Shown here: positions 1-28,858 of the stretch, one piece after another
How the letters are laid out: each line of letters starts with the position of its first letter
Numbering within the stretch: position 1 is the stretch's first letter
IMG/VR virus record: IMGVR_UViG_3300021255_001482
Coordinates: 74,382 to 103,239 of that record
Direction: 5' to 3' (one strand)
DNA length: 28,858 nt
From: a virus
Lineage: Duplodnaviria; Heunggongvirae; Uroviricota; Caudoviricetes
The notes under the pieces: model-generated
The model's input: only the letters and a program-made list of their open reading frames with translations
What the model was told of the DNA's origin: nothing
Database searches by the model: none
Position numbers and translations under genes: made by a program

Positions 1-1
1 G

Positions 2-112
2 ACTTGGCGAGAAAAAATAAATAAAATTTATCCATATTGCCCTCATTGTGGCGCCCGCAAGAAATGGTATAATGAAAAACCAAAGAAAATAGAAAAATAT
101 TCATGGGAGTGA
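2..112 (+). CDS. 3' end of a small CxxC (Zn-ribbon-like) hypothetical protein, truncated by the window start
   Basis: Manual translation from base 2: TWREKINKIYPYCPHCGARKKWYNEKPKKIEKYSWE*, with TGA at 110-112 just ahead of the next gene. Confidence 0.6.
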   Translation, partial: TWREKINKIYPYCPHCGARKKWYNEKPKKIEKYSWE

Positions 113-116
113 TAAT

Positions 117-377
117 ATGTCCAATTATGAAACAAGGCAACCCGATATTAATATTATTGCTAATTTAGATTTAGATAGTAGTAACGCCAACGAACATATT
201 AAAGAAGTTAAAGAAAATCTTGAAGAACTTGCAGAACTAATTGAAGAAATTGAATTACCAGACATTCGCCCAATCATAAATTTTTATGGTTGTTCTTTTA
301 ATTTTGCTAATGATGGATGTGCCGAAGCAAGATATTATAATGGTTCTGATATTTATAATCAAAGAAAGGAAGATTAA
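117..377 (+). CDS. Hypothetical protein (86 aa, acidic)
   Basis: ORF track. SD-like GGGAGTGAT upstream; stop abuts the next ATG at 379. Confidence 0.7.
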   Translation: MSNYETRQPDINIIANLDLDSSNANEHIKEVKENLEELAELIEEIELPDIRPIINFYGCSFNFANDGCAEARYYNGSDIYNQRKED

Positions 378-378
378 A

Positions 379-1098
379 ATGAATAGAATCTTCATTACTG
401 GTGACCTTCATTTGAATATTGATATTAAAAAATTGAGTTTTAAAAATTGGCCTTCCTCACGCGAACTTGATAAAGAAGATACACTCATTATTTGTGGTGA
501 TGCTGGACTTACTTGGAATGACTCAAATGAAGTTAAGTATTGGTGTGATTGGCTTGAAGATAGACCTTATACAGTAATTTCTGTTCTTGGCAATCATGAG
601 AATTATGACCTTCTTCGCGCGATTCCAATTACCGAGTGGCATGGCGCAAAAGTTCGTAGAGTGCGGCCGCACGTCATGTATATAGAAAATGGTGAAATTT
701 TCACTATTAATAATCAAACTTTTTTCTGTATGGGCGGAGCGACTTCTGTGGATAAAGTTTATCGTAAAGAAGGTAAATCTTGGTGGCCGCAAGAAATACC
801 TACTTGGGATGAAATGGATTATGCCGCTAATAATCTTCGCTTACATAATTTCCAAGTAGATAATATCATTACCCATTGTGGTCCAAATTATATTGTGGAT
901 AAACTCTTTCCTTATGAAAACGCACACGATGATATTACAAACTTTCTTGAAAAGTTTGTAAGAATGACCACCACCTTTAATAAATGGTATATGGGCCATT
1001 ATCATGTTGATCGTTGTTATGACGATCAAAAATTTAATATTCTCTACCAAGACATTCTTGAAATTATGCCTGATAGAAGATGGGAGATAATAGCATGA
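379..1098 (+). CDS. Calcineurin-like metallophosphoesterase
   Basis: Motifs GDLH, CGDAG, GNHENY, ITHCGP, GHYH. Start reassigned from 286 to ATG 379 (MNRIFITGDLH), which has AAGGAAG upstream and removes an overlap with 117..377. Confidence 0.9.
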   Translation: MNRIFITGDLHLNIDIKKLSFKNWPSSRELDKEDTLIICGDAGLTWNDSNEVKYWCDWLEDRPYTVISVLGNHENYDLLRAIPITEWHGAKVRRVRPHVMYIENGEIFTINNQTFFCMGGATSVDKVYRKEGKSWWPQEIPTWDEMDYAANNLRLHNFQVDNIITHCGPNYIVDKLFPYENAHDDITNFLEKFVRMTTTFNKWYMGHYHVDRCYDDQKFNILYQDILEIMPDRRWEIIA

Positions 1099-1463
1099 GT
1101 TATGAATATAAAACAGCAATGAAGAAAGATATATTAGATTATATTGATTCTAGCATTACATTAGAAGATTGGGAATTCCGCACTGACCTTGAAGATTATT
1201 TGTATAGCGAATTATGGGCGGACGATTCTATTACTGGTAATGGTGGCAATTATTATGACACAGAAATATCTTGTGAATCTTATCTTGCTTATAACCTTGA
1301 TTTGATGATGGAAGCTTGTGAAGAATTTTGCGTGGATATGAAAATTCTTTTACAGCATTATCATGATGAAGATTTAGCTAGATTTTTAGATTGCACTATA
1401 CGTTGCTATTTACTTGGAGAGATTCTTTATGATGTTTTAAATGAAATTTGGAAGTCAGAATAA
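1095..1463 (+). CDS. Hypothetical phage protein (acidic)
   Basis: ATGA overlap with the upstream stop at 1095-1098 and GGGAG upstream; ORF track begins at 1080. Confidence 0.7.
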   Translation: MSYEYKTAMKKDILDYIDSSITLEDWEFRTDLEDYLYSELWADDSITGNGGNYYDTEISCESYLAYNLDLMMEACEEFCVDMKILLQHYHDEDLARFLDCTIRCYLLGEILYDVLNEIWKSE

Positions 1464-1466
1464 GAT

Positions 1467-4763: not shown

Positions 4764-6626
4764 GTGAATCAAAATTATGACATTAACTCCATTGAAAGTC
4801 TAGACTTCCGCACCGGCGTTCGTACCCGTATTCAAATGTATTTGGGGTCGGATGACATAGAAGGAACTTATCAGGCTTTAAAGGAAATTATAAATAATAG
4901 CACAGACGAAGCACTTGCCGGTTTCGGTAAACGTATTGAAATTGATGTAGATGAAAAAGAAAACGCCGTTATGGTACGCGATTATGGCCGCGGTGTTCCT
5001 TTTGGTATTCGTGAAAATGGTGAAAATGTATTGGTTTCCGTCTATACTCAATCTCATACTGGCGGTAAGTTTAATCATAATGCTTATAAAAATTCTAGCG
5101 GTCTTAATGGCCTAGGTGCGAGTTGTACTTGCCTGTCTTCTGAAAAATTTGAAGTTCAAAGTAATCGTGATGGTAAGTGCGCCTGTGCTTTCTTTGAAAA
5201 AGGCAATCTAGTTACTTATAAGGAAGGAACTACAAAAGACGCCAATGGCACATATGTGCGCTTTAAGCCTGACCCAGAAGTATTTTCCAATGGAGAAATT
5301 GGATATTCTTATGAGCGTATTTGCGCGGACATCAAAGACATTTCATATTTATATCCTGGTATTGAATTTATAGTTTCTTGTGGAAAAGAAACTAAGACTT
5401 ATTGTGCCAAAGAAGGAATTGTAGATTTTGTAAAAGAAATGGTTCAAAAGCCGCTACAAAAGCATATTATTACTGGTTCTGCTACTGATGGAACAGATAC
5501 GGTAGAAATCGCATTCCAATGGGGAACTAAGCGCGAAACACCATATGTATTCGTGAATGGTCTTCGTTGCCCTGAACTTGGAACCCCAGTAACTGGCGCT
5601 CGTGCGGCTATAACTAAGACTTTTAATAGCCTATCGGGCCAGAACTTTGATGGAGAATATATCCGCAAGAATCTATTTTATGTAGTTAATTGTAAAGTAG
5701 AAAATCCTTCATTTGCTAATCAAACAAAAACCAAGATTAATAATCCTTCTCTGCGAACTCTTGCTACAACCGCTTTTACTTCTGCTTTAAAGGAAATGAA
5801 CATTAAATATAATAGTGAATTTACCACTATTGTAGAGATGTTAAAGAAAATTGAAAAGGCGGAAGCCGCGGCTGAAAAGGCTCGTAATGCTGTCCTTAAT
5901 ATGGAAAAAAAGGAAACCGAGCACAAGAAGCAAAAAATTACTTCTTCTGATAAGTTTAAGGATTGTGAAAAGCATGGGCAGGATTCTATGCTAATTGTAT
6001 GTGAGGGTAATTCCGCACTTGGTGGTCTTATGCCCGCACGCGATGTTAATACAGAAGCGTTATACGCGGTACGTGGTAAAGTTAAAAATCTTTTAAAGCA
6101 CCCACTTGACGAGTGCCTTGAAAATCAAGAAGTTTCTGATATTATTATGGCTCTTGGTTGCGGTATTCAAAATAAGTATAATAGCAAGAAGTTAAATTAT
6201 GGTAAAGTTGCTATTGCTGTGGATGCTGATGCAGATGGTTACAACATTATGTGTCTAATTGCTACAATGTTCTATGTCCTTATGCCCGATTTTATTAAAG
6301 AGGGTAGACTTTGTTGGTTAAGAGCTCCGTTATATCGTTTAAGTAAAGGTGATAAGAGAGTATTTGCTTATAACGATGCTGAACTCGCAGAACTTCGTAA
6401 GAAGTATCCTACTTGGGAGCAAGGACGCAATAAGGGGCTTGGCGAAATGACAGCAGACGATATGGAGGCATCTATGCTTCATCCAACTGAACGGCATCTT
6501 GAAGTTTTAACTGTTCATGACGCGGAAGCCGCGGCTGAAAGCCTACAAATGCTTATGGGCAATGATGTTGACCCACGGCGTGAGTTTTTGTTTGAGAATG
6601 TTGATTTTAGTGTTTTGAATAATTAA
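4764..6626 (+). CDS. gyrB: Type IIA topoisomerase subunit B (GyrB/ParE-like)
   Basis: GHKL motifs EIINNSTDE, DYGRGVP, HTGGKF, GLNGLG. TOPRIM motifs EGNSA, RGK, DADADG and KGLGEM. GTG start with AAGGAGG SD. Gyrase versus topo IV is not resolved. Confidence 0.93.
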   Translation: MNQNYDINSIESLDFRTGVRTRIQMYLGSDDIEGTYQALKEIINNSTDEALAGFGKRIEIDVDEKENAVMVRDYGRGVPFGIRENGENVLVSVYTQSHTGGKFNHNAYKNSSGLNGLGASCTCLSSEKFEVQSNRDGKCACAFFEKGNLVTYKEGTTKDANGTYVRFKPDPEVFSNGEIGYSYERICADIKDISYLYPGIEFIVSCGKETKTYCAKEGIVDFVKEMVQKPLQKHIITGSATDGTDTVEIAFQWGTKRETPYVFVNGLRCPELGTPVTGARAAITKTFNSLSGQNFDGEYIRKNLFYVVNCKVENPSFANQTKTKINNPSLRTLATTAFTSALKEMNIKYNSEFTTIVEMLKKIEKAEAAAEKARNAVLNMEKKETEHKKQKITSSDKFKDCEKHGQDSMLIVCEGNSALGGLMPARDVNTEALYAVRGKVKNLLKHPLDECLENQEVSDIIMALGCGIQNKYNSKKLNYGKVAIAVDADADGYNIMCLIATMFYVLMPDFIKEGRLCWLRAPLYRLSKGDKRVFAYNDAELAELRKKYPTWEQGRNKGLGEMTADDMEASMLHPTERHLEVLTVHDAEAAAESLQMLMGNDVDPRREFLFENVDFSVLNN

Positions 6627-7024: not shown

Positions 7025-9403
7025 TTGATTTACGAAACTGACTTTCAAAAACAAATTGAAAATGCTTTCTTGACCTACGGAGCATCCGTGGCGCAAGAAC
7101 GTGCCATTCCCGATGTTCGGGATATGCTCAAAATCGGTTTGCGTCAAGGACTGTATGCTCAATTCACAAATAAACTAACTCATAAGGACAAGATGCAAAA
7201 AGCACAGAAGTCCGTAGCAGCAGCCATGAATCAAAGTTATGTTCATGGTGATGTTGCTATGTATGATACTTTCATTCGTGCGGCAAGACCCTGGTCTTAT
7301 CGTTATCCTATTGAGGATGTTCAAGGTAGCTTTGGTAATCCATCTTCTCCTGATAGCCACGCGGCCGCACGTTATGTTGAAATGCGAGCCGGTGAAATGG
7401 CGGATTATTTCTTTGCTGGTCTAAAGAAAAATGCTATTGGAGAGCAATGGTATTCTAATTATGACGATACAGAAATGATTCCTTCTGTATTTCCTTCTGT
7501 TGGCTATTGGAATATTGTAAATGGATGTTCTGGTATTGCGGTTGCAATGGCCACATCAGTTCCTCAATTCAATCTGCGCGAAGTCAATGAAGCACTAATT
7601 AAAATTATTCAAAATCCCAATGTAAGTTTCAATGAAATTTATTGTGCTCCTGACTTCGCAACCGGCGGAACAATTACAAATGCAAAGGCAGTTCGTGAGA
7701 GTCTCAAGAACGGTAAAGGCGAATCTATCCGTATCAAAGCGAAACTAGATTATTTCCCTGACCAGAACATGATTCAAGCAACTGAATTACCTTATGGTGT
7801 TTTTACAAACACTGTAATTGACCAACTAGCTGCTCTAACAAATGAAAATGAAAGTTATGGAATAGAACGAGTTGTAGACCATACCAAGAAAACAGCAGAT
7901 ATTCGTATCTATCTTTCAAAAGGTGCAAATCCAAAGCGAATGATAGCCAAGCTTTATAAGGATACAAGCCTTGAAAATTGGTATGCTATTAATATGATTC
8001 TACTGGATAATGGACGCTTTCCAAAAGTATTTGGTTGGCGTGAAGCATGTGATGCCTACATAACCCACATTCGTGAATGTAAGCGAAATATAATCCAATT
8101 TGATTTGGATAAAGCACTTGCACGCGAAAATGTAGTAGAGGGACTTATTCTCGCGGCAGCTTCTATTGATGAAGTCGTAGCAATTATTCGCTCTTCTCAA
8201 AATCCAGCAGAAGCATCTGAAAAACTTATTGCTCGTTTTAAGTTTAATGAAGAGCAAACAAAGGCAATTCTTGCTATGAAACTTTCTTCATTAACAAAAA
8301 TAGATGCTATCAAATTAAATGATGAACTAGAAGAACTTAAAAGAAAAATAGAGGAGTATCGCCACTTATTATCTGATACTACCGCTTTGAACAATGAACT
8401 AATTAAAACACTACAGGTAGTGGCTGATAAATATGGCGACGCTCGTCGTACAAAGATTTTAAATATTGTAGAGAATGAAGATAACGAGGAACAGCAAATT
8501 CAAGAAGAAGAAGTCGGCGTAATGTTATTTGATAACAATATGTTACGTCTTGTTAAGAAAGAAGATTTACAAGGCGGAAAACGTGGCCGAAAGGGTATAA
8601 ATATTAAGCCTCCAAAGGGTGCGAACCTAATCAATACTTTGTATACAACCAACCTTGGAGTTGTTGCCGCATTCACTAATGCTGGTCGTATGTATAATTT
8701 TTCTTTGGCTGATTTAGATTATGGGAAGGACTATTCTGTTTATGAACTAATTGTTCTACAAGATAACGAAAAAGTCCTGCTACTAATAGATACGACTTCC
8801 TTCAACGCATATCATAATTTAGTAACCATAAGTAAGAAGGGTTATATTAAAAAGACAGCAACTCGTGAATATAATGTGCGGGCTAAGAAAGGCACTGCCG
8901 TGATGAAGCTAGATACTGATGATAGGCTTATCGGGGTATATCTTTCTATGAGTGATGAAGATAAGATTTTCATTACTAGTAGCGCTGGTAATTATAACTT
9001 CTATGAAATTGGCGAGGTTTCTGCTACTGGAAGAATGACTAAGGGAGTTAAGGCCATTAAGTTAAACGCAACTGAAACTATTTGCGCGGCGACCCTAGTA
9101 AAAAAGGATATAAATTATCGTGGTCTTTTAACTATTACTACTACTGGTAAAGGTAAAATTACTAAGATAGAAGATTTCAATACAACCAGCCGCGCGATTA
9201 AAGGCCCACAAGTAATGGATTTAAAGACAGAAACTTTAGCAACAGTATTTGCTGTACCAGAAACACAAGAAAAGGTATTTATTACTACCAATAATAAAGC
9301 GGTTTTATTAAATGTTGATTCTATTCCTATTCAAAACCGCGTAACTAGTGGAGTTCGCATTATTGATGCGCGCGGAGTAGAAAGTGGAATTGAAATTATG
9401 TAA
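7025..9403 (+). CDS. gyrA: Type IIA topoisomerase subunit A (GyrA/ParC-like) with beta-pinwheel C-terminal domain
   Basis: ERAIPDVRD, HGD, AAARYVEMR (catalytic Tyr), PDFATGG, repeated pinwheel blades in the C-terminal part. TTG start. Confidence 0.93.
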   Translation: MIYETDFQKQIENAFLTYGASVAQERAIPDVRDMLKIGLRQGLYAQFTNKLTHKDKMQKAQKSVAAAMNQSYVHGDVAMYDTFIRAARPWSYRYPIEDVQGSFGNPSSPDSHAAARYVEMRAGEMADYFFAGLKKNAIGEQWYSNYDDTEMIPSVFPSVGYWNIVNGCSGIAVAMATSVPQFNLREVNEALIKIIQNPNVSFNEIYCAPDFATGGTITNAKAVRESLKNGKGESIRIKAKLDYFPDQNMIQATELPYGVFTNTVIDQLAALTNENESYGIERVVDHTKKTADIRIYLSKGANPKRMIAKLYKDTSLENWYAINMILLDNGRFPKVFGWREACDAYITHIRECKRNIIQFDLDKALARENVVEGLILAAASIDEVVAIIRSSQNPAEASEKLIARFKFNEEQTKAILAMKLSSLTKIDAIKLNDELEELKRKIEEYRHLLSDTTALNNELIKTLQVVADKYGDARRTKILNIVENEDNEEQQIQEEEVGVMLFDNNMLRLVKKEDLQGGKRGRKGINIKPPKGANLINTLYTTNLGVVAAFTNAGRMYNFSLADLDYGKDYSVYELIVLQDNEKVLLLIDTTSFNAYHNLVTISKKGYIKKTATREYNVRAKKGTAVMKLDTDDRLIGVYLSMSDEDKIFITSSAGNYNFYEIGEVSATGRMTKGVKAIKLNATETICAATLVKKDINYRGLLTITTTGKGKITKIEDFNTTSRAIKGPQVMDLKTETLATVFAVPETQEKVFITTNNKAVLLNVDSIPIQNRVTSGVRIIDARGVESGIEIM

Positions 9404-10025: not shown

Positions 10026-10385
10026 ATGATTACCCCAAACAGTGAGCTAGTTCTAAATTTCCTAAAGAAGAATTTTGGTAAGGAGTTTACCAAGAATGAG
10101 ATTGCAGAGACCCTAGGTATTTCCATTCCCGCCGTTACAGGTTCCATTAATGGCCTAGTTAAGAAGGGCTATGTTACTGAGCGTCTAGAAGAGAAGGTTG
10201 TTGAGGACGCTACCGAGACTCGTAAGGCTAAGGTAAAGACAATTCGTCATGAGACTCTAACTGAGGCCGGTCTAGCTTATGACCCAGTGGCTGAGGAAGA
10301 GGCCAAGCAGGCCGCTAAGGCTGCTGAGAAGGAGCGTAAGGCTGCCGAGCGCGCTGCTGCCAAGGCTGCCAAGGAGAACGCCTAA
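10026..10385 (+). CDS. Winged-helix DNA-binding protein with Ala/Lys/Glu-rich tail
   Basis: FTKNEIAETLGISIPAVTGSINGLVKKGYV is a MarR/DeoR-like wHTH pattern. Strong codon bias suggests high expression. Confidence 0.75.
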   Translation: MITPNSELVLNFLKKNFGKEFTKNEIAETLGISIPAVTGSINGLVKKGYVTERLEEKVVEDATETRKAKVKTIRHETLTEAGLAYDPVAEEEAKQAAKAAEKERKAAERAAAKAAKENA

Positions 10386-11445: not shown

Positions 11446-12450
11446 ATGGCAAACGATATTGATATTTTCTCTCTTGAACCTAGTAAGATTTCCCGCGACC
11501 TAAAAGGAAAGTTTTTACTTATTTATGGACAGCCTAAGACGGGCAAGTCTACATTTGGCTCTCAATTGCCTCGTTCACTATTTCTAAATTTTGAGCAGGG
11601 CACTAATGCCTTAGCAGGTATTCGCAGTGTTCCTATTCTTCGTTGGAGTGATTTCCGTAAGGTTCTTACACAACTACGCAAGCCGCAGGCGCGCGAAATG
11701 TATGATAGCATTGTAGTAGATACTGCTTCTATCGCTTGGCAACTTTGTGAGAAGTATATTTGTCAGCGTGAAAGTGTTGATTCCATCCGAGAAATTCCTT
11801 GGGGCCAAGGCTGGGGTATGCTACGAAATGAGTTCTCTGAATGCTGGCGTGAAATTACACTTCTTGGCTTTGGTATTTTATTTATCGCGCACAGTAAGGA
11901 GAAGCCGACTGAAATGCGCGATGAAGAGGGTAATGAAATTACCGCAGTAGCACCTGATCTGCCAAATCAGTGCTATCAAATTGTAAATAGTATTGTAGAT
12001 ATTATTGGATATTTACAGGTTCAGATGAATAACGATGGTACTTCTGAACGTTATCTATACACACGCTCTACACCGACAGTATTTGCTGGTAGTCGCTATC
12101 AATACTTGGCGCCAAAGATTAAGTTTGGTTATCAAGAATTGGTTGATGCGATTGGTGATGCAATTGACCAGGCTGTTGAAAAGGATGGAGCAGAAGTAAC
12201 TGACCATACAGTTATCGCGCAAATTAAGGCTCGTCCATTTAACGAAATTATGGAAGAGGCTAAGGCAATCTGGCAAGCATATATCAATGAAGCTGAAACA
12301 GATGAAGCAAAGGAACAGCACTTTAATATTGCTAAAGATGTTATCAAGCGCGTGTTCGGTACAGAGGCATTTAAGCTTAGCCAAGCAGTCCCCTCGCAAA
12401 GCGACCTTGTTGAATTATTCATAGATGAAATGAAAGAAATTATGGAATAA
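11446..12450 (+). CDS. Phage AAA/RecA-like ATPase (Sak4-like single-strand annealing protein, SPbeta YorG-like)
   Basis: Walker A YGQPKTGKST, Walker B SIVVDT, FIAHSKE; adjacent to SSB. Confidence 0.82.
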   Translation: MANDIDIFSLEPSKISRDLKGKFLLIYGQPKTGKSTFGSQLPRSLFLNFEQGTNALAGIRSVPILRWSDFRKVLTQLRKPQAREMYDSIVVDTASIAWQLCEKYICQRESVDSIREIPWGQGWGMLRNEFSECWREITLLGFGILFIAHSKEKPTEMRDEEGNEITAVAPDLPNQCYQIVNSIVDIIGYLQVQMNNDGTSERYLYTRSTPTVFAGSRYQYLAPKIKFGYQELVDAIGDAIDQAVEKDGAEVTDHTVIAQIKARPFNEIMEEAKAIWQAYINEAETDEAKEQHFNIAKDVIKRVFGTEAFKLSQAVPSQSDLVELFIDEMKEIME

Positions 12451-12476
12451 AAAAAGACCTGCATAGGTCTTTTTTT
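12450..12476 (+). terminator. Intrinsic terminator (potentially bidirectional)
   Basis: AAAAAAGACCT-GCAT-AGGTCTTTTTTT. Confidence 0.8.
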
Positions 12477-12477
12477 A

Positions 12478-12506
12478 TTGACTTTTTTTCAAATCTGTGA
12501 TATACT
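12478..12506 (+). promoter_or_regulatory. Sigma-A-type promoter for the helicase/primase operon
   Basis: TTGACT-N17-TATACT with TGn extension. Confidence 0.8.
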
Positions 12507-12527
12507 AAATAGTAGGAGGGATGATAT

Positions 12528-13031
12528 ATGGCAAAAGCAACATTACAATGTTTTAAATGTAAGCAACAATTTTTACGAAATGAGCTAGTAGAATATGCTA
12601 GTCCACGTTCAACTACATTTCATAAATATTGCCCGAATTGTTTAAAAGAACAACAATCACGCGATAAGTTTTCAGAAAGCGTTTGTAATATTTTTGGATT
12701 AAAAACGCCAGGACCTCGTATATGGGCTGAACGCAAACGTCTTATGGATACTTATGGTTATACCGATCAAATAATTATTGATTGTTTAAATTATATTTAT
12801 TTAGTAGAAAAAGCACAAAAATTATCAGAGTCTCTATGTTTAGTTAATCCGCCAACTGTTGAAAAGATGATGAAATATAAGCGACATCAAGAATATGAAC
12901 AAAATAAGTTGGCTAGTGCTTTTGCAGAAAGTATGAGCTCAACAGTTAAGCCACGAATGGTAAAAATCAAAGAAAACACTTCTACAGTTGGAAAGAAAAA
13001 TTGGAGTCTTGATGATTTTTTTGATGATTAA
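12528..13031 (+). CDS. Zn-binding protein upstream of the helicase (possible helicase loader or accessory, YorH-like position)
   Basis: CFKC...YCPNC at the N-terminus, acidic DDFFDD end. Function is inferred from synteny only. Confidence 0.55.
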   Translation: MAKATLQCFKCKQQFLRNELVEYASPRSTTFHKYCPNCLKEQQSRDKFSESVCNIFGLKTPGPRIWAERKRLMDTYGYTDQIIIDCLNYIYLVEKAQKLSESLCLVNPPTVEKMMKYKRHQEYEQNKLASAFAESMSSTVKPRMVKIKENTSTVGKKNWSLDDFFDD

Positions 13032-16291: not shown

Positions 16292-18064
16292 ATGATTTAC
16301 AGACTAAGAAATTATTATACAATGAATCCAGAAAATGCCCTTCAAGAAATTCTAATTGATCGTGGCGTAAAAGATATTGAAAATTTTTTATATCCAACTT
16401 CAAAATGCGAACTTGACCCATATGGCCTTGAAAATATTGATTTAGCCGCGGAGATGCTTTTAAGACATTTACGTGCGGATAGTAAAATTATGTTTGTTGT
16501 TGACAGCGATGCGGATGGAGTAACTAGTTCTAGTATTTTATGGCTTTATATTAAACATATTTTTCCAAAAGCAAATTTAAATTTTACTATGCACGAGCAT
16601 AAACAGCATGGACTAGATGATAAGATTGACTGGTTAGAAACTTTAAATGATATTAATTTAGTTATCTGTCCAGATTCTGCAAGCTATGATGTAGAAGAAC
16701 ATTCCAGATTAGCTGAATTAAATATTGATTGCCTTGTGCTAGACCACCACGAACAACTTTATGATACTGATGGCAATCCAGTCATTTCTACTGCTCCAAA
16801 TACAGTAATAGTAAATAATCAGCTGTCTCCGCATTATGAAAACAAGTCTCTTTGCGGCGCAGGTGTAGTATATAAATTTTGTGAAGTGTTAGATGAAATT
16901 CTTGGCATTCATCAAGCACAAGAATATATGGATCTAGTTGCACTTGGAGAAATCGCTGATGTTATGGATAGAACAACAGCTGAAACTAATTATCTTATGC
17001 TTGAAGGTCTTTCTAATATTCAAAATAAGGGTTTTCAAACTTTGTTAGCATCTCAGTCTTATTCTTTAAAAGAAAAAGCTACTTTTCCATGGAACGGCTT
17101 AACTCCTATTGACATTGCCTTTTATATTGCTCCTTTAATCAACGCTCTAACTCGTGTTGGGTCAATGAAAGAAAAAGAAGCAATGTTCTATTGTTTTGTA
17201 GAACCGGATAGAGTTCTTCCAAGTACGAAACGCGGAGCGAAACTAGGTGACACGGAGACTGCCGCAGAACAAACAGCGCGTGTAGGCAAAAACGCAAAGG
17301 CTCGTCAAGATAAGCTAAAAGAAAAGGCTATTGACTTAATTGATTTCAAAATTCAAAAGAATGATTTGGCAAGTAATAATATTATTTTAGTAGAAATTGA
17401 ACCAGAAGATAATATTCCGCCTGAACTAACTGGACTAGTCGCAATGGCTATTGTAAATAAATATAATAAGCCAGTTATGATTGGTCGCCGCAATGATAAG
17501 GGTGAAATCAATGGAAGTATTCGTAGCAGCGGAAACTTCGCTGGATTACCTAGCTTTAAGCAATTCCTTGAAGAAAGTAATTTAATGAACTATGTTGCTG
17601 GACATGATGCCGCGGCAGGCTTTGGAATTAATGCTACATTAGATGAACGACTATTAAATTATAGTAATGCAGTTCTTAATGATGATGATTTTAAGAAGTG
17701 TTATACTGTTGATTATATTCTTGATGCTGGCGATAATAATACTGAACTGCTCACAGTGTTAGCTTCACACCCAGAGTTTTTCGGTAATCATATAGATGAA
17801 ATTAAATTTGTAATTAAAAACATTACGCTTTCAAATGTTATGGCTATGGGCGCAAATAAGGATAGTATGAAGATTTCTTGTAATGGTGTTGATTATGTAA
17901 GATTTAAGGATATGGATTTTGTTGACACCGTTATGAATAATAGAATGGATAAACTTACAGTTTATGGGCGTGCAAATTTAAATACTTTCGCTGGCCGCAC
18001 ATCAATTCAAGTATTTATTGATGATTATGAACTTTTAAAGGATGAAAATAAATATGATTTCTAA
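16292..18064 (+). CDS. recJ: RecJ-like DHH single-stranded DNA exonuclease
   Basis: DSDADG, DHH, LCGAGV, DLVALGEIAD, IAPLINA, GSIRS, GHDAAAG. Confidence 0.92.
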   Translation: MIYRLRNYYTMNPENALQEILIDRGVKDIENFLYPTSKCELDPYGLENIDLAAEMLLRHLRADSKIMFVVDSDADGVTSSSILWLYIKHIFPKANLNFTMHEHKQHGLDDKIDWLETLNDINLVICPDSASYDVEEHSRLAELNIDCLVLDHHEQLYDTDGNPVISTAPNTVIVNNQLSPHYENKSLCGAGVVYKFCEVLDEILGIHQAQEYMDLVALGEIADVMDRTTAETNYLMLEGLSNIQNKGFQTLLASQSYSLKEKATFPWNGLTPIDIAFYIAPLINALTRVGSMKEKEAMFYCFVEPDRVLPSTKRGAKLGDTETAAEQTARVGKNAKARQDKLKEKAIDLIDFKIQKNDLASNNIILVEIEPEDNIPPELTGLVAMAIVNKYNKPVMIGRRNDKGEINGSIRSSGNFAGLPSFKQFLEESNLMNYVAGHDAAAGFGINATLDERLLNYSNAVLNDDDFKKCYTVDYILDAGDNNTELLTVLASHPEFFGNHIDEIKFVIKNITLSNVMAMGANKDSMKISCNGVDYVRFKDMDFVDTVMNNRMDKLTVYGRANLNTFAGRTSIQVFIDDYELLKDENKYDF

Positions 18065-18218
18065 AGATATTGAATGTTTTAAATGTAAATATGGAGAAAA
18101 TTGTCCTGTTCTTTGGTCTAGGCATAATGCCGCCTGTTTAACAATTCGTGAAGAAAAAGATGAATATGAAGAACAATTAGACTGGGATTATAGGGCACAT
18201 GAATATCTAGATAGTTGA
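18054..18218 (+). CDS. Small Cys-rich hypothetical protein (54 aa), not in the ORF track
   Basis: MISKDIECFKCKYGENCPVLWSRHNAACLTIREEKDEYEEQLDWDYRAHEYLDS*; overlaps the recJ end and fills the gap to the next promoter. Confidence 0.55.
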   Translation: MISKDIECFKCKYGENCPVLWSRHNAACLTIREEKDEYEEQLDWDYRAHEYLDS

Positions 18219-18243
18219 CAAAAAGAAAATTCTATGATATAAT
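18215..18243 (+). promoter_or_regulatory. Consensus sigma-A promoter for DnaE
   Basis: TTGACA-N17-TATAAT with TGn extension; -35 overlaps the upstream TGA. Confidence 0.88.
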
Positions 18244-18273
18244 AATTATAGAATAAAGAAAGGAAGTGATTGT

Positions 18274-21200
18274 GTGAGTAAATACCCTGGTAGTCTTCAT
18301 AATCACACGGATTATAGCAATGAGACTTTACGAGATTGTATTAATAAAGTAAATTCTCTAATTGATACAGCAATTAATTTGGACCATGAGTGTGTAGCAA
18401 TTACAGACCATGAAACCATTTCAAGTTATATTAAGGCTGAAAAATATTATAACAAAATTAAAAAGGAACATCCAGATTTTAAACTTATTCGTGGTAATGA
18501 AATTTATCTTACACGAAATGATTTAAATGCGACAAATTATGATAAAAATAAAGATAGGTATTTCCACTTTATTCTTCTTTGTCGTGATTTAGAGGGTTAT
18601 CATCAGATTTGTGAACTATCTACTCGTGCCTGGCGTCGTTCTTATATTAGTCGTAGATTAAGGAGACGTCCAACTTATTACCGAGATTTAAAGGAAGTTG
18701 TTAAACCAAATCAAGGACATTTAATTGCTTCATCTGCGTGTCTTGGCTCACAACTAGATAAGTTTCTTTTAAGATATATGGATACTGGTGATGAAGAATT
18801 TTATAAAACAGCTAAACAATGGTGTCTATATATAGAAGATATATTTGGTCGTGGTAATTTTTATCTTGAATTGCAGCCATCAAATAGTAAAGAACAGATA
18901 TTTGTAAATCAGCATCTTGTTAAGATAAGTAGAGAATTAAAGCTCCCTTATATTATTACAACCGATAGCCATTATCTGCGGCCAGAAGATTCATTCATTC
19001 ACGAATCTTTCCTAAATGCGCAAGATGGCGAACGCGAAGTAAGAAGTTTCTATGAAACAACTTACATGATGAGCGATGAGGAAATTCGTTCGTTCTTTCC
19101 TTATCTTGAAAAAGAAGAAATTGAGACGGCATATTATTACATTAGAGAAATCAAGAATAAGTGTGAAGATTTTTCAATCTTAAAGCCGTTGGAAATTCCT
19201 ATGCTGCCTTGGCGTGAGTTTCATGCGCGCACGCAAGAGGAGATAGATAAGTATATTAGTTATATTCCAGAATTAGATAAATTTCTTCATTCCCCTTATC
19301 GTGCTGATAACGAATTGTTTTTTGCTGTTATAGATGGAATCCAAAAGCACGAAGATTTACAGAATCAAAAAGCATATGACGCTTTAAATGAGTGTTTAAA
19401 TATGACTTGGATTTCTAGTGAAGTAAATAAAGCAAGATGGTCAGCCTATTTCCTCAATCTTCAAAAGATTATTGATGAATGTTGGAACGCCGGAACATTA
19501 GTTATGCCCGCACGTGGTTCTGGCGGTGGATTTTTACTTCTATATGCGTTAGATATTATTCAAATTAATGCTTTGCGCGAAAAGACAGCCATGTATCCTT
19601 GGCGTTTCCTTAATCCTGCGCGTGTATCTGTTCTTGATATTGATGTAGATATTTCTGGTATTAAGCGTGCGCAAGTATTGGAGCATTTAAGAAAGTATTA
19701 TGGTGAAAACCGAGTATCAAATGTAGCAACATTTAAACTAGAAAAATCTAAATCAGCAATTCTTACTGCGTGTCGTGGCTTGGGAATTGATGTAGATAAT
19801 GCACAATATATTTCTTCTTTGGTTACACAGGAACGTGGCCAGGCATATACATTACATCAAATGTATTATGGCGATGAAGAAAATGGTATTAAACCAAATC
19901 CAACTTTTGTTGAAGAAATAAATAAGTATGATAAACTATGGGAAGTTGCTAGTAAAATTGAGGGACTAATTTGTGGATACGGTATTCACGCGGGCGGTGT
20001 CGTGTTTAAGGATAAGGATTTCACTGAATCTAGTGCACTTATGCGCGCACCAGATGGAACAATTATTACACAGTTTGAACTTCATGATTTGGAAGATGTT
20101 TCAGAAATTAAAATGGACCTTCTATCGGTTGAAGCCGCGGATAAAATCCAAACCTGTCTTGAAATGTTAATTAAGGATGGATATATTGAAAAGTATCCAA
20201 CTTTACGTGAAACATATGAAAAGGCATTGGGTGTATATAACATTCTTCGTGATGACGAAGATATGTGGAAGTTAGTAGATGAACATAAAATTGTAAGTCT
20301 TTTCCAAATGGAAAAGGCAAGCGGTATTCGCGGTATTTCACTAACTCATCCAAAAAATGTTGATGACTTAGCAACTTTAAACTCGGTCATTCGTCTTATG
20401 GCGTCAGAAAAAGGTGCAGAAGCACCACTAGATAAATACGCTCGTTTTCGTAAGCATCCTAATGATTGGGAAACTGAAATGATTCAGTATGGTCTTTCAA
20501 ATAAAGAACGAGAATTACTTCATGAACAATTAGATGTTTCAGATGGTTTGTCAATTACACAGGAACAATTTATGAAATTAGTTCAACTACCAGAATGCGG
20601 CGGCTGGGACTTACAATGGGCTGATAGACTTCGTAAAAGTATTGCGAAGAAGAACCCAAAAGAATATGAGCAACTAACCAAAGAATTTTATGAACGAGTA
20701 GATGAAAAGAATCTTAGTAAAAAATTTTGTCATTATGTTTGGGATGTTCAAATTGCGTTAAGCCGTGGATATGGTTTTAATGCAAGTCATACTTATGCTT
20801 ACTCTATTATTGCTCTTCAAGAAATGAATTTAGCATATAGGTATCCAATTGTGTATTGGAACACAGCAAATCTGATAGTAGATAGTGGTGGAGTTCAAAC
20901 CGAAGATATTGATGAAGAAGATGAAGATGAAATTCAAGCTGTCTTATTAGAAAATAGCATTGAATATATGAACACTTCTGAATATTTAGATGAAGAAGAA
21001 TCTGATGAAGAAGAATGGGAAGAAGCAAATGAAGAAACAACCGAAGCAACGGCAGATAAGAAAAAGAAAAAGAATAAAGTCGTTGATTATGGACGTATCG
21101 CCTCAATTATTGGTAAAATGGGCGATTATGGAATTAAAGTATCTCCACCTGATATCAACCAATCTTCTTTTACATTTACACCTGTCGCAAAAGATAATGT

Positions 21201-22269
21201 TATTCTTTACGGGCTACGCGGCATCACTCGCGTCTCCACGGACAAGATTAATGAAATCATGGCTATGCGACCATATGAGTCATTAAAGGATTTCTTAATG
21301 AAAATTAAAGTAAATAAGCTTCAAATGATAAATTTAATTAAGTCTGGTGCGTTTGATAACATTGAGAATATTCCGCGCGAAGAAATTATGGCAAAATATA
21401 TTGACATGATTGCTGATAAGAAGCAAAGATTGACTCTTCAAAATATGTCAATGTTGATTGCGAAAAATCAGATACCTGCTGATATGCAGTTCTATGCGAA
21501 ATTATTCTCGTTTAATAAGTTTCTAAAAACCTGTAAGGATGGAATTTATTATGAATTAAATGAAGCCGCGATTAACTTTATTGATAATCATTTTGATATA
21601 GATATTGTTGAAGATGGCACAAGAGTTTTACAAAAAACTTGGGATAACATTTATAAGAAGGCAATGGAACCAATGCGTCAATATTTAAAAGATAATAAAG
21701 AAGAAGCATTGGCAAAGTTAAATAAGGCTTTATATGATGAAATTGCTGATAAGTATGCCGATGGTAATATTAGTAAGTGGGAAATGGACAGTATCTCATT
21801 CTATTATCACGAGCATGAATTGGCAAAAGCCAAGAATGATTTTGATGATTTCTTCAAATTATCGGAAGAACCTGAAATTGAATATAGTTTTCCTGGAAGT
21901 AATGGCCAAGAAATAAAGGTATATAAGTTATTTAAAATCATTGGGACTGTAATTGATAAGGATAAGAATCGTAATACAGTTACACTCTTAACTCCGACTG
22001 GTGTTGTAAATGTAAAAATTTATAAGAACCAATATGCAATTTATGATAAGCAATTGAGCCAGCGCGGAGATGACGGTAAGAAACATGTAATTGAAAAGAG
22101 TTGGTTCGCGCGCGGAACAAAACTTATGGTTCAGGGCATTCGTCGCGGAAATGATTTTATCCCAAAGAAAAAGAAACAGTCAATTTATCCAATTATTTCA
22201 AAGATAACAAATGTAGATGAATATGGAAACTTAACTTTCCAATATGAGCGTGCGGAGGTAGAAGAATGA
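18274..22269 (+). CDS. dnaE: DNA polymerase III alpha subunit (C-family, DnaE-like, SPbeta YorL type)
   Basis: PHP motifs LHNHTDYS, ITDH, GNEIY, HFILL, SSAC, TDSHY. Polymerase motifs ARGSGGG, LDIDVD, GIHAGG, KMDLL, GYGFNASH. C-terminal OB fold. Confidence 0.95.
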   Translation: MSKYPGSLHNHTDYSNETLRDCINKVNSLIDTAINLDHECVAITDHETISSYIKAEKYYNKIKKEHPDFKLIRGNEIYLTRNDLNATNYDKNKDRYFHFILLCRDLEGYHQICELSTRAWRRSYISRRLRRRPTYYRDLKEVVKPNQGHLIASSACLGSQLDKFLLRYMDTGDEEFYKTAKQWCLYIEDIFGRGNFYLELQPSNSKEQIFVNQHLVKISRELKLPYIITTDSHYLRPEDSFIHESFLNAQDGEREVRSFYETTYMMSDEEIRSFFPYLEKEEIETAYYYIREIKNKCEDFSILKPLEIPMLPWREFHARTQEEIDKYISYIPELDKFLHSPYRADNELFFAVIDGIQKHEDLQNQKAYDALNECLNMTWISSEVNKARWSAYFLNLQKIIDECWNAGTLVMPARGSGGGFLLLYALDIIQINALREKTAMYPWRFLNPARVSVLDIDVDISGIKRAQVLEHLRKYYGENRVSNVATFKLEKSKSAILTACRGLGIDVDNAQYISSLVTQERGQAYTLHQMYYGDEENGIKPNPTFVEEINKYDKLWEVASKIEGLICGYGIHAGGVVFKDKDFTESSALMRAPDGTIITQFELHDLEDVSEIKMDLLSVEAADKIQTCLEMLIKDGYIEKYPTLRETYEKALGVYNILRDDEDMWKLVDEHKIVSLFQMEKASGIRGISLTHPKNVDDLATLNSVIRLMASEKGAEAPLDKYARFRKHPNDWETEMIQYGLSNKERELLHEQLDVSDGLSITQEQFMKLVQLPECGGWDLQWADRLRKSIAKKNPKEYEQLTKEFYERVDEKNLSKKFCHYVWDVQIALSRGYGFNASHTYAYSIIALQEMNLAYRYPIVYWNTANLIVDSGGVQTEDIDEEDEDEIQAVLLENSIEYMNTSEYLDEEESDEEEWEEANEETTEATADKKKKKNKVVDYGRIASIIGKMGDYGIKVSPPDINQSSFTFTPVAKDNVILYGLRGITRVSTDKINEIMAMRPYESLKDFLMKIKVNKLQMINLIKSGAFDNIENIPREEIMAKYIDMIADKKQRLTLQNMSMLIAKNQIPADMQFYAKLFSFNKFLKTCKDGIYYELNEAAINFIDNHFDIDIVEDGTRVLQKTWDNIYKKAMEPMRQYLKDNKEEALAKLNKALYDEIADKYADGNISKWEMDSISFYYHEHELAKAKNDFDDFFKLSEEPEIEYSFPGSNGQEIKVYKLFKIIGTVIDKDKNRNTVTLLTPTGVVNVKIYKNQYAIYDKQLSQRGDDGKKHVIEKSWFARGTKLMVQGIRRGNDFIPKKKKQSIYPIISKITNVDEYGNLTFQYERAEVEE

Positions 22270-26417: not shown

Positions 26418-26450
26418 TAATTGTAAAGTAAAGGAGTGGTTGTGATGTAG

Positions 26451-27464
26451 ATGTTGTATGGAATAATAGGAATACTTACAATTATAATAATTATACTAGG
26501 TGTAAAACTAGGACAGAAGATTTCAATTGATAATAAGCAATTAGAAGTTTATAAGAAAGAAATCTTTGAAGCGGAAGGAAGAGTAGAAAAACTTCGTTTT
26601 CAAAAAGATGAATTAACAAAAGATATTAAAACACAAACTGATTTGGTTAGTGAATATAATGATAAATTAATTGAAATTCAAAATAAGTATAAACGAGAAT
26701 TAAATAAGAAAACGACAGATTTAGACTTATATTTTGAAAATCAAAAACTTACACGTCAGTCAGAAATGGATACAGACTTTGAACGATTGTGGCGTGAAAA
26801 AGAAGAAAATTTAAAAACCAAATATATTCAGTTTGAGCGCGAAGAATTAGAGAAAGAGCATAAGTTTAGACAGGAAGTTCAAAAAGTAATTGATTCTGCG
26901 CGTGAAAGCCAAGAAAATATTCTAGCAGAGACTCGCGCGCAACAAGACCGTTTTGAAGGACTACTACTTCCTTTAAGACAATATGAAATGGAACAACAGG
27001 AACGTTTATTTTATACAATACAAGTTCCTGATGAATATAAAGATGATATTAATTTCTTAATTACTACTGTTTCACAAAAAGTCCAGCATCCCGATATTAT
27101 AAATAAACTTGTATGGGCTGAATATGTGAAACCTTATATAGATGGAACTTTTAAGCGAGTTGGAATAGAAGATAAGCCTGGCATTTATAAAATTACAAAT
27201 ATTGATACTGGTAAATGTTATATTGGTAAAAGTACCAATGTTAAAAAAAGAATTACTGACCACTTTAAAAGTTCAATTGGTATAAAAACAATCGCAGACC
27301 AAGCAGTACACCATGAGATATGGAAAACAGGTTTTTGGAATTGGACGATTGAAATAATTATTTATTGTGAGAAAGAGCAATTAAATGAATTAGAAAAGTA
27401 TTATATAGATTTCTTTAAAAGCCAAGAATTTGGATATAATAAAAATGTTGGTGGTGGGGGATAA
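26451..27464 (+). CDS. Membrane-anchored coiled-coil protein with C-terminal GIY-YIG nuclease domain
   Basis: Hydrophobic N-terminus LYGIIGILTIIIIILGV and long E/K/Q-rich helical region. Nuclease motifs GIYKITN..TGKCYIGKS..VKKRI..H, LNELEKYYI and GYN. Confidence 0.82.
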   Translation: MLYGIIGILTIIIIILGVKLGQKISIDNKQLEVYKKEIFEAEGRVEKLRFQKDELTKDIKTQTDLVSEYNDKLIEIQNKYKRELNKKTTDLDLYFENQKLTRQSEMDTDFERLWREKEENLKTKYIQFEREELEKEHKFRQEVQKVIDSARESQENILAETRAQQDRFEGLLLPLRQYEMEQQERLFYTIQVPDEYKDDINFLITTVSQKVQHPDIINKLVWAEYVKPYIDGTFKRVGIEDKPGIYKITNIDTGKCYIGKSTNVKKRITDHFKSSIGIKTIADQAVHHEIWKTGFWNWTIEIIIYCEKEQLNELEKYYIDFFKSQEFGYNKNVGGGG

Positions 27465-27757
27465 TGGAAATTATTAAATATGAAGGTAATTCAAATTATA
27501 TAATTATTTTATATAAAGAAAAAGATAAATTATTTGTTTTATATGCTCTTACAAATGCATTGTTTATAGATAGCGAAAATGAGGAAGTAGATATAGACGG
27601 TTGCTTTTCCCGTATTACAAAATTTGTTTTAAACCGCCATGTTGCTGTGCATATTCCTCTTATTGAAAGAGAAAATAATAAAGTATTTTCTATCATTCAA
27701 GTAGATAATGAAAAAGCATATGATTTAATTAAAACAGTAGTGGAGGATTTACTATGA
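27464..27757 (+). CDS. Hypothetical protein (97 aa)
   Basis: ORF track; TAATG coupling. Confidence 0.65.
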   Translation: MEIIKYEGNSNYIIILYKEKDKLFVLYALTNALFIDSENEEVDIDGCFSRITKFVLNRHVAVHIPLIERENNKVFSIIQVDNEKAYDLIKTVVEDLL

Positions 27758-28044
27758 GTGAAGAAATTTTTGCTACTGGCTTAACTACAGAGCATGATAG
27801 CCTAGAATCGATTGAAGCTGAAACTACGGCTGCTATTGAAAATAAATCGCAAGAACTACAATTTCATAATCGTGCCCAGCGTAGAGCGTTCGCAAAGAAA
27901 CTTGGCAAGTCTGGGCGCGCGAAAATGGGCACCATATCAGAGACAGCTAAAAAGCTTAATTATATAAATCTAATTGAACAACTACGAGAACTAAATGAGA
28001 AAAAGGAGAATGAAAATTATGAAGATGCTACTGAAGACAGTTGA
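27754..28044 (+). CDS. Hypothetical protein (96 aa)
   Basis: ORF track; GGAGG SD and ATGA overlap. Confidence 0.75.
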   Translation: MSEEIFATGLTTEHDSLESIEAETTAAIENKSQELQFHNRAQRRAFAKKLGKSGRAKMGTISETAKKLNYINLIEQLRELNEKKENENYEDATEDS

Positions 28045-28225
28045 CACTTTCCGTGTTGAAGATGAAGAAGAGGCTGTTCGCCTAATTGAAGAATATAAGA
28101 ATAATCAAAATACAGAAGGTTACTCTCTAACTAAGTCTGGCTATGTTCTAAAGAATAAGAAGTCCAAGGGCGAAATTATTGATAGTTGGGCTATCGTAAC
28201 AGTAGAGAGAACTTTTACTGAATAA
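28019..28225 (+). CDS. Small hypothetical phage protein
   Basis: Start reassigned from 27995 to ATG 28019 (AAGGAG 10 nt upstream): MKMLLKTVDTFRVEDEEEAVRLIEE...KSKGEIIDSW. Confidence 0.7.
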   Translation: MKMLLKTVDTFRVEDEEEAVRLIEEYKNNQNTEGYSLTKSGYVLKNKKSKGEIIDSWAIVTVERTFTE

Positions 28226-28238
28226 GGAGACAATAACT

Positions 28239-28858
28239 ATGGAAAACAATTTTACAAATTTCGCAGATATGGTATCTAATGATGAAAATTTACAGCCTAT
28301 TATGGATGCCATTGAGCAGATTATGGCTATTCCAGAAGATAGTTTAAATAATGAAAATATTGATGTCATGATTGGCATGATTTCTGGAGCCTTTACTGAT
28401 AAAATTCGCAATGATTCTGTCAATGAAATGATTAAGAATTTTGAGGAAGAAGGGCTTACTCGTGCGGCCGCGCATGAAAACATTGAGTCTTCAAAGATTG
28501 CTATTAAGGAAGCAATTGATGAACTAAAGCCTTCCGCTAATAAGCGTCAGATTCTTGAAGGTATTTTCTCAATTTTCTATGATATTTTTGATGCCGCATT
28601 AGAACGCTATCATAATTATAATATCGTTCTTCCAATTAAGCTGGATGATGGCGCGACCGTTCCTACTTATGCGCATGAAACCGATGCTTGCGCCGACCTT
28701 TATGCCGCAGATGATATGGTACTTCCAGCGCATACCTTTAGTAATATGGTTAGAACTGGCGTGCATATTGCTCTTCCAGAAGGCTGGATGGCAATGATTT
28801 TCCCACGTTCTAGTATTGGAGCCAAGACGCAGAATCGTCTATCAAATAGTGTTGGTAT
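28239..28858 (+). CDS. dut: Trimeric dUTPase with an N-terminal extension of about 125 aa (truncated by the window end, not in the ORF track)
   Basis: Manual translation from ATG 28239 (AAGGAG SD) is open to the end: ...VPTYAHETDACADLYA (motif 1), VRTGVHIALPEG, IFPRSSIG (motif 2), RLSNSVG (start of motif 3). Confidence 0.9.
   Translation, partial: MENNFTNFADMVSNDENLQPIMDAIEQIMAIPEDSLNNENIDVMIGMISGAFTDKIRNDSVNEMIKNFEEEGLTRAAAHENIESSKIAIKEAIDELKPSANKRQILEGIFSIFYDIFDAALERYHNYNIVLPIKLDDGATVPTYAHETDACADLYAADDMVLPAHTFSNMVRTGVHIALPEGWMAMIFPRSSIGAKTQNRLSNSVG

Follow-up and report, generated by a model that had tools for sequence, protein, structure and literature searches.

The tetranucleotide CGCG was found far in excess of chance in the final 28,858 bases of a 103,239-bp viral contig from IMG/VR, and it is this final part, analyzed at its full length, that is called the window here. 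The excess is real. The explanation that we favor, with moderate confidence, is that it reflects a clade-specific, GpC-centered tendency of G and C to cluster which has been shaped by restriction avoidance, and that CGCG itself is neither selected nor targeted. Short palindromes in phage genomes are usually read as restriction targets to avoid, and a first-pass annotation of the window had proposed that CGCG might belong to a highly iterated palindrome (HIP) system. The contig (G000) is linear and has a GC content of 35.1% and a CheckV completeness estimate of 58%; the GC content of the window was measured at 33.9%, where the annotation had estimated about 31% by eye. Throughout, S denotes G or C, W denotes A or T, and r0 is the enrichment value of a word.

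Exactly 99 CGCG sites at 87 separate loci were present between positions 1 and 28858, together with exactly 14 CCGG sites. The annotation had arrived at these numbers as approximate hand counts, and all 16 of its example coordinates were correct. The same region exhibited the G/C-clustering signature and a strong depletion of TCGA (2 sites), GATC (13), GTAC (21) and TGCA (50). The density of CGCG was 3.43 per kb in the window versus 2.29 per kb in the remaining 74 kb of the contig. Expected counts were derived from base composition, from first-order and maximal-order Markov models, from a within-gene shuffle of synonymous codons and from a synonymous shuffle that also preserved dinucleotides. 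Gene calls for the shuffles were made with a crude longest-open-reading-frame (ORF) caller (128 ORFs, 88% coding), and the whole-sequence Markov statistics are independent of this caller. The window count was 4.37-fold higher than the base-composition expectation, 3.0-fold higher than that of the first-order Markov model and 1.47-fold higher than that of the maximal-order model (z 5.05). In the ORFs of the window, CGCG exceeded the synonymous shuffle by 1.84-fold (z 7.9) and the shuffle that also kept each dinucleotide by 1.29-fold (z 5.5), while the synonymous ratio for the ORFs of the whole contig was 1.58 (z 8.5 to 8.8); dinucleotide-preserving shuffles were exceeded by 1.22- to 1.35-fold. 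The excess persisted through codon, dicodon and Markov correction, and amino acid or codon content did not explain it, as the annotation had argued. Enrichment was detected in all three codon phases (1.48-, 1.72- and 2.87-fold in the window), again as claimed, and in all but one of the 14 window genes that were at least 600 nt long. CpG was not generally elevated (rho 0.93 to 1.00), and GpC was high (rho 1.36 to 1.44). CGCG ranked between first and third among the 256 tetramers, and alternating CGCGCG runs were over-represented 2- to 4-fold; an example of such alternating CG/GC words is the run CGCGCGCG at positions 22107 to 22114 in the DNA polymerase ORF, which holds three overlapping CGCG sites.

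The enrichment was not specific to CGCG, and this part of the first-pass claim did not hold, as CCGC, GCGG and GCSGC were enriched to the same degree or more so. The r0 values in the contig were 3.02 for CCGC/GCGG, 2.75 for CGCG, 2.36 for GCGC, 1.94 for CGGC/GCCG and 1.93 for CGCC/GGCG. Among the S-only tetramers, all those with a GpC step had an r0 above 1.2 (from 1.24 for GCCC/GGGC up to 3.02 for CCGC), and all those without one had an r0 below 1 (CCCC, 0.66; CCGG, 0.84; CCCG, 0.91). Relative to the synonymous shuffle of the contig, ratios of 2.09 for CCGC and 1.44 for GCGG were obtained versus 1.58 for CGCG, and the z score of CCGC was the larger under every null. The words furthest above this shuffle were CCGC/GCGG (z 16.4), GCSGC (2.17-fold, z 15.7; the most enriched 5-mer of the contig) and GCCGCA, with CGCG in ninth place. 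The excess was therefore not exclusive to a palindrome, since the nonpalindromic CCGC/GCGG shared in it.

The common element of these words was a dependence of silent positions on their neighbors. At four-fold degenerate sites, the probability of G or C in the third position climbed with the number of S bases among the four neighbors, from 0.15 to 0.41 in the contig, from 0.20 to 0.44 in G001, the closest complete relative (100% complete, with a polymerase 98% identical to that of the contig), and from 0.20 to 0.61 in G004, another of the near-complete relatives (G001 to G005). A silent-site G or C was thus 2.7 to 3 times likelier beside G/C neighbors. The curve was flat in all four control phages (SPbeta, Staphylococcus phage K, Listeria phage A511 and T4), each represented by a 50-kb piece. 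The r0 of CGCG in these controls was 0.12, 0.00 and 0.03 in SPbeta, phage K and A511, respectively, where it was among the rarest tetramers, and a neutral 0.96 in T4. As the controls lacked both the excess and the gradient, the signature is distinctive and not generic to AT-rich genomes, and a general clumping of S bases in such genomes was ruled out. Regional heterogeneity in third-position GC content (GC3) was also ruled out, because third-position autocorrelation was about 0.015 at lags of 1 to 3 and nil beyond, which indicated a local bias and no GC3 mosaic.

Maximal-order Markov scans for k = 5 to 8 detected no longer motif around CGCG, and the flanks of the sites were mildly enriched in G/C at positions -2/-1 and +4/+5 (1.3 to 1.8 times background). 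Two candidate extended motifs, TTCGCGCGAA and CGCGCGAA, were rejected as products of codon content (Arg-Glu and similar) with a strand bias and variable flanks. An oriented, Chi-like motif was likewise rejected, as the Chi words of B. subtilis, S. aureus and L. lactis were neither notably in excess nor notably oriented. As a separate observation, runs of at least 6 A or T were depleted in the contig (0.61-fold), as were AGGT/ACCT (0.75-fold) and CAGG/CCTG (0.77-fold), none of which is palindromic.

A search of IMG/VR with the polymerase as query yielded 75 related loci (given L-numbers here), of which 69 were at least 9 kb and 60 at least 12 kb in length; the sample included complete genomes of 165 to 184 kb, and terminal repeats were present in two of these. 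Among the 69 loci, the median r0 was 2.96 for CGCG (range, 1.0 to 7.1), 3.73 for GCGC (0.07 to 5.6) and 2.74 for CCGC. The whole G001 genome had 530 CGCG sites (3.08-fold) and that of G004 had 1,028 (5.05-fold; 1.99-fold over the synonymous shuffle, z 29). Across the 60 longer loci, CGCG enrichment correlated with the rho of GC (0.75), with CCGC (0.61), with GCGC (0.64) and with TCGA avoidance (-0.48). The signature was clade-wide, but a comparison of relatives, which the annotation had advised, gave no indication that the sites themselves were held in place. Over 54 kb aligned between the contig and G001, the conserved fraction was 0.49 for CGCG and 0.49 for the other S-only tetramers pooled (0.54 and 0.55 in the window part). 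The sites unique to either genome were similar in number (85 in the contig and 101 in G001) and were exchanged mainly with CGTG, CGCA and TGCG. These results indicated that the number of CGCG sites is at a steady state in which gains approximate losses and individual sites are not maintained. Overall, there is a bias that acts locally and without regard to codon phase or strand, that extends across the clade and that the control phages lack, and individual CGCG sites turn over neutrally.

A second layer was evident in the words that were missing. The window contained 2 TCGA sites where the synonymous shuffle predicted 48, and ACGT was strongly depleted there too. In the contig, TCGA stood at 0.14-fold and GATC at 0.18-fold; relative to the codon-aware expectation, the values were 0.16-fold for TCGA, 0.26-fold for GATC and 0.57-fold for TGCA, and GTAC, ACGT, CATG and GCWGC were also avoided. 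Short palindromes were depleted in lineage-specific patterns, as in restriction-site avoidance by other phages, and CGCG stood outside the avoided set. Of the 47 TCGA sites left in the contig, 26 were within GTTCGA, which in a region upstream of the window (38.2 to 58.6 kb of the contig) forms the T-arm of 29 tRNA genes (the T-arm word being GGTTCGA), where the site is not removable. GCWGC (GCAGC/GCTGC) was present at 0.6- to 0.7-fold (0.62-fold over the whole contig; z -7 to -10) versus 1.9- to 2.2-fold for GCSGC, which leaves GCNGC near neutral. CTGCAG was present at 3 sites versus 25 expected in the contig, and CTNAG and GGWCC were depleted as well. The pattern of avoidance differed between relatives: GCGC was almost absent from L009, L016, L037 and L047; GATC was not present at all in L021, L026, L039, L043, L060 and L073; TGCA and CATG were nearly absent from L048; and GGCC was nearly absent from L059, L074, L020 and L066. 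These fingerprints probably record the differing restriction repertoires of the hosts of one clade. The four relatives that avoid GCGC had lost part of their CGCG and kept CCGC, which fits a shared baseline of G/C clustering that is pruned by host-specific restriction.

We propose that two forces could produce this combination. A first force would keep or gain G or C at silent positions preferentially beside another G or C, with GCG/CGC as the core, and would inflate the S-only words made of GC and CG steps (CGCG, CCGC/GCGG, GCGC, CGGC, GCCG and GCSGC). A second, lineage-specific force of avoidance would remove W-containing palindromes (TCGA, GATC, TGCA, GTAC, ACGT and CATG, with GCWGC) and also some S-only sites (CCGG, and GCGC in some lineages), leaving CGCG as an unrestricted sink. 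The first force may have its source in the host or in the phage's own SPbeta-like module of PolIII-alpha, RecJ and helicase. Karlin and co-workers reportedly defined a genome signature as a profile of dinucleotide and oligonucleotide relative abundances and ascribed it to context biases of replication and repair. The bias described here resembles such a signature in its strand symmetry, phase independence, genome-wide reach, presence in relatives, centering on a dinucleotide (GpC, rho 1.36 to 1.48) and fast site turnover at equilibrium; it differs in extending cooperatively to words of 4 to 8 bases, with one palindromic octamer beyond neighbor effects. On the strength of these shared properties, and of the grading of words by their GC and CG steps, a genome-signature type of bias is the most likely, and we infer that the first force is a substitution bias arising from the replication and repair environment and not selection on sites.

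Several observations weigh against a purely neighbor-dependent bias pruned by avoidance. The strictest null, which combined codon usage, all dinucleotides and avoidance, still left CGCG at 1.18-fold in the contig (z 5.4) and at 1.30-fold in G004 (610 expected versus 794 observed, z 18). The intensity of CGCG differed 2.6-fold between relatives with polymerases that are 94% identical, a divergence that is fast for a signature of replication errors and for which GCGC avoidance covers part. The octamer GCGGCCGC, the NotI word, was enriched and the nonpalindromic octamers GCGGCGGC/GCCGCCGC, which share its strand-symmetric trinucleotide content, were not (15 copies versus 2, with about 2 expected). 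An octamer excess limited to the palindrome is not predicted by a bias that depends on neighbors alone, and it may be a sign that a symmetric protein recognizes the word. Finally, as candidate drivers of the first force, mutation bias and weak selection yield identical equilibrium statistics.

This octamer was present in 16 copies in the contig, 12 upstream of the window and 4 within it. The first of the window copies (copy 13 of the 16) is at positions 663 to 670 inside the ORF at 286 to 1098. A second is at 7361 to 7368 inside the ORF of a topoisomerase II subunit (7025 to 9403), at an orthologous position that is conserved in G001. A third, also conserved in G001, is at 13263 to 13270 in the ORF of the DnaB-like helicase, where it lies within the 11-base G/C run CCGCGGCCGCG (13261 to 13271) and is flanked by the CGCG sites at 13262 and 13268 that the annotation had listed. 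The fourth is at 28464 to 28471 inside a minus-strand ORF (28148 to 28483). About 0.1 copies were expected in the contig from base composition and 0.6 from a second-order Markov model, an excess of 28.6-fold over the latter, and 1.3 were expected from the synonymous shuffle (11.8-fold). Under the strictest null, 5.4 were expected versus 15 copies observed in ORFs (2.8-fold, z 6.7). These 15 of the 16 copies were spread over the ORFs of different genes, occupied each of the three phases and had unrelated flanks. Of the 23 CGGCCG cores in the contig, 16 were flanked by G and C as G_C, and when any seven positions of the octamer matched, the eighth matched in 50 to 77% of cases. TTGCGG/CCGCAA was also enriched, but largely as the flank of the octamer. 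In the pooled 75 loci, GCGGCCGC was the most over-represented octamer palindrome, with 100 copies versus 17.9 from an order-3 Markov model and a presence in 50 loci, and it was followed by GGCGCGCC (43 versus 13.8) and GCCGCGGC (74 versus 30); none of the three occurred in the four control phages. GCCGCGGC, the second clade-wide GC-rich palindrome, is found in the window at positions 5865 to 5872, 6528 to 6535 and 17609 to 17616. The favored word shifted between lineages, as G004 had 35 copies of GCCGCGGC and 145 of CCGCGG instead.

A different set of octamers was seen in G001, in which GGCCGGCC and CGGGCCGG were the top octamers and were confined to a 23-kb region that did not align with the contig. 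This region (135.6 to 158.9 kb; L083 to L084) held about 19 GGCCGGCC words and about 31 CGGGCCGG/CCGGCCCG words at spacings of about 0.5 to 1.5 kb, which suggests that a 12-base palindrome, CGGGCCGGCCCG, recurs between small genes. They were rejected as a dispersed element and considered to be a local repeat of one region.

The main alternative to neighbor-dependent clustering is a drive like that of HIP elements, in which a host cytosine methyltransferase acting on CGCG, GCSGC, CGGCCG or a similar word, combined with methyl-directed or very-short-patch repair, would ratchet copies of its site into the phage DNA. Such a ratchet would account for CGCG and GCSGC as well as for the octamers GCGGCCGC and GCCGCGGC, as in the model proposed for HIP1, GCsGC and GGCGCC (Elhai 2015). 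We regard this as an unlikely but still live rival, and several observations fit it. HIP1 (GCGATCGC) of cyanobacteria is 15 to 300 times over-represented relative to second-order Markov expectation (Xu, Lawrence and Durand 2018, PMC5861425), and the 28.6-fold excess of GCGGCCGC is inside this range. GCsGC, GGCGCC and rCCGGy serve as alternate HIPs in cyanobacteria (Elhai 2015, PMC4390886; PMC5861425), and GCSGC, the top 5-mer here, is that of Cyanothece PCC 7822, where it is linked to a cognate methylase (PMC4390886). Like HIP1 and its alternates, the words described here are GC-rich palindromes over-represented within genes, in all frames and regardless of the encoded peptide. The enriched S-only words all contain GpC, as the model requires; the palindromic forms of GCSGCSGC were enriched and the nonpalindromic forms were not; and the frequent completion of the eighth octamer position is also in keeping with a ratchet. 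The favored word varied among related genomes, as it does among those that carry alternate HIPs, and its shift between the contig and G004 is what a change of methyltransferase specificity would give.

The points on the other side concern both the words and the machinery. CGCG was only 1.2 to 1.5 times over-represented relative to the second-order Markov model, at 1.47-fold in the window, 1.23-fold in the contig, 1.28-fold in G001 and 1.38-fold in G004, all below the HIP range. HIP1 sites are preferentially conserved between related genomes (PMC5861425), unlike CGCG, as described above. Of the octamer, 3 of 11 aligned sites were conserved in G001 (27%, a small sample), which is not clearly more than among control octamers (23% of the other S-only words and 30% of those with seven S bases). 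Membership of the HIP family further entails a cognate DNA methyltransferase in the same genome (Elhai 2015), a density of 0.3 to 2.7 per kb and quasi-periodic spacing over 10 to 90 kb. The density of GCGGCCGC was 0.155 per kb in the contig and 0.06 to 0.07 per kb in G001 and G004, below that range, and it is found in a virus of 35% GC, not in the chromosome of a cyanobacterium.

Profile searches of the contig detected no match to the C5 (PF00145) or N4/N6 (PF01555) methyltransferase families, to PF02086 or to the Vsr family (PF03852). As the contig is incomplete, the searches with PF00145, PF01555 and PF03852 were repeated on the five near-complete relatives. All three families were absent from G001, G002, G004 and G005 (PF02086 having been searched in the contig only), and Vsr was absent from all five relatives. 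A C5 cytosine methyltransferase was encoded by one of the six clade genomes (L076, at G003:173433-174353), and this genome, G003, had the lowest CGCG enrichment of the close relatives (1.7-fold). Avoidance of GCGC was strong in G003 too, with 6 sites found in 24 kb. The one-transition neighbors that deamination would generate from CGCG were not depleted relative to the maximal-order Markov model (TGCG, 0.93; CGCA, 1.18; CGTG, 1.27; CACG, 1.19). The mechanism put forward in the first-pass annotation, a CGCG methylase with biased mismatch repair, corresponds to the Dcm/Vsr very-short-patch repair of enterobacteria, in which methylated CCWGG-type sites gain copies through biased T:G repair; neither the search of the rest of the genome that it recommended nor the state of the deamination neighbors bore this out. 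Hypermodification of the DNA was rejected as well, as no TGT/DpdA and no thymidylate-synthase or dCMP-hydroxymethylase homologue was found in five genomes. Two candidate host genomes, described below, did not match the phage.

The analogy with HIP systems was fair for GCSGC and for the octamer, and it failed for CGCG as a distinct iterated palindrome. GCGGCCGC is the only HIP-like unit here, and it is a HIP-like element that we do not place in the HIP family, because its density was low, its conservation was not clearly higher than that of control words and no methyltransferase was encoded. For the clade as a whole, AT-rich phages of about 165 to 185 kb, it is possible, if still doubtful, that a HIP-type process makes GCGGCCGC, GCCGCGGC, GCSGC and part of the CGCG. 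Such a process would involve a methylation-directed repair ratchet or a symmetric DNA-binding protein. As the phages lack known methyltransferases, the machinery would come from the host or from an unrecognized phage gene.

Restriction avoidance acting by itself is an improbable cause of the excess. In this scenario, the prohibition of many W-containing sites of 4 to 5 bp would push silent positions into safe words such as CGCG, CCGC and GCSGC. Avoided and enriched words were indeed linked by single silent changes: GCTGCA was present at 0.36-fold and GCCGCA at 2.76-fold, and T before GCA fell from 0.44 to 0.22 as C rose to 0.24, while T before CGA fell to 0.06 as G rose to 0.37 (T|GCA and T|CGA giving way to C|GCA and G|CGA). 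The correlation of CGCG with TCGA avoidance across the 60 loci points the same way. The contribution of avoidance was quantified in models of the contig ORFs that held 13 avoided site groups at or below their observed counts. With codon usage fixed by synonymous permutation, the expected number of CGCG sites was 151 and rose to 163 ± 10 with avoidance, versus 238 observed. A maximum-entropy model built on codon positions 1 and 2 and global third-base composition gave 77, rising to 98, and a model of codon usage plus all dinucleotides gave 195, rising to 201. In the maximum-entropy model, avoidance accounted for 13% of the excess of CGCG, 28% of that of CCGC, 38% of that of GCSGC and 71% of that of GCCG. 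The GCG and CGC codon shares reached 12% and 16% with avoidance versus 17% and 30% observed, and the octamer GCGGCCGC reached 1.6 to 2.5 copies versus 15. At sites flanked by S on all sides, avoidance raised the modelled value from 0.30 to 0.35, with 0.415 observed, and so supplied about 45% of the extra cooperativity. As all three models fell short, the 13 site groups that they covered largely refute avoidance as the sole cause. The likeness to classical restriction-site avoidance lies in the strong, lineage-specific depletion of 4- to 5-bp palindromes, which shapes the set of G/C-rich words that survive; the difference is that CGCG is enriched here, and that only about 13% of this enrichment is obtained from avoidance. 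These models indicated that the contribution of avoidance to CGCG is real but small and that a second, GpC-centered and neighbor-dependent force is needed.

The annotation had also raised the possibility that the sites, spaced on average some 300 bp apart, form a binding grid for an abundant protein such as the winged helix-turn-helix protein encoded at 10026 to 10385; a Z-DNA-prone structural element is a related idea. The density of CGCG (3.4 per kb) and the over-represented CGCGCG runs would suit such a role, and the ORF had weak MarR-type profile matches (E values of 5e-6 to 9e-4). This explanation is very improbable. The spacing of CGCG in the window was irregular to clumped (coefficient of variation, 1.18) and no flanking consensus was present, so that nothing grid-like could be recognized. 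The positions of sites were not conserved between close relatives, the nonpalindromic CCGC was more enriched than CGCG, CGCG density varied from 1- to 7-fold among relatives that share one gene set, and nothing tied the motif to the ORF at 10026. Least credible of all is an artefact of amino acid and codon usage, in which Ala GCG and Arg CGC codons would give CGCG by chance: codon usage alone does lift the expectation for the contig ORFs from 77 to 151, but this artefact was refuted by the synonymous and dinucleotide-preserving shuffles and by the spread of the excess over all three phases, and the unusual GCG/CGC usage is itself a part of the signature that the control phages lack.

The window is a DNA replication module that encodes two topoisomerase II subunits, a Sak4-like annealing protein, a DnaB-like helicase, a primase, a RecJ-like exonuclease, a polymerase and NrdD. 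The polymerase is of the PolIII-alpha type, is 1,331 amino acids in length and has 37% identity to YorL of SPbeta. The order of the genes at 11446 to 22269 (Sak4-like, a small ORF, DnaB-like helicase, primase-like, a small ORF, RecJ-like and PolIII-alpha) is syntenic with yorG to yorL of this Bacillus phage.

A megablast comparison with deposited phages gave no match. The sole match on a contig of a bacterial genome was to a relative with 54% identity, on a 35%-GC contig (L095) within a Lachnospiraceae metagenome-assembled genome of 49.5% GC (G006). This contig was phage-like and avoided TCGA, GATC and GTAC, whereas other contigs of the same assembly (L125 to L136) had CGCG at 0.12-fold, GGCC at 0.05-fold and CTAG at 0.01-fold and did not avoid TCGA or GATC. 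As the signature of the assembly was the opposite of that of the phage, L095 was probably binned wrongly; the pattern of avoidance in the assembly is striking in its own right. When 401 Lachnospiraceae-family genomes were scanned for the density of GCGGCCGC, a single outlier emerged (G198), which was rejected as a host, having 58% GC, the octamer near expectation and no avoidance of TCGA or GATC.

Should the pattern amount to no more than a genome signature, it would serve as a cautionary case, in which a raw enrichment of 4.4-fold drops to about 1.2-fold once lower-order composition is respected. The octamer GCGGCCGC, over-represented to the degree of HIP1 without a methyltransferase in the genome, offers a tractable test of how iterated palindromes arise. 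If a HIP-type process does operate in this clade, highly iterated palindromes would for the first time have been described in a virus and beyond the cyanobacteria, with the favored word switching between close lineages. The signature also misleads host prediction and binning that rely on composition, as in the relative placed in an assembly of opposite signature. In the same genome, TCGA and GATC have been almost eliminated, yet CGCG is in the top three of the 256 tetranucleotides. The rule of G/C clustering runs through a large clade of uncultured phages and is absent from four other AT-rich phages, and the clade is hence a natural system for telling restriction-driven selection from context-dependent substitution bias.

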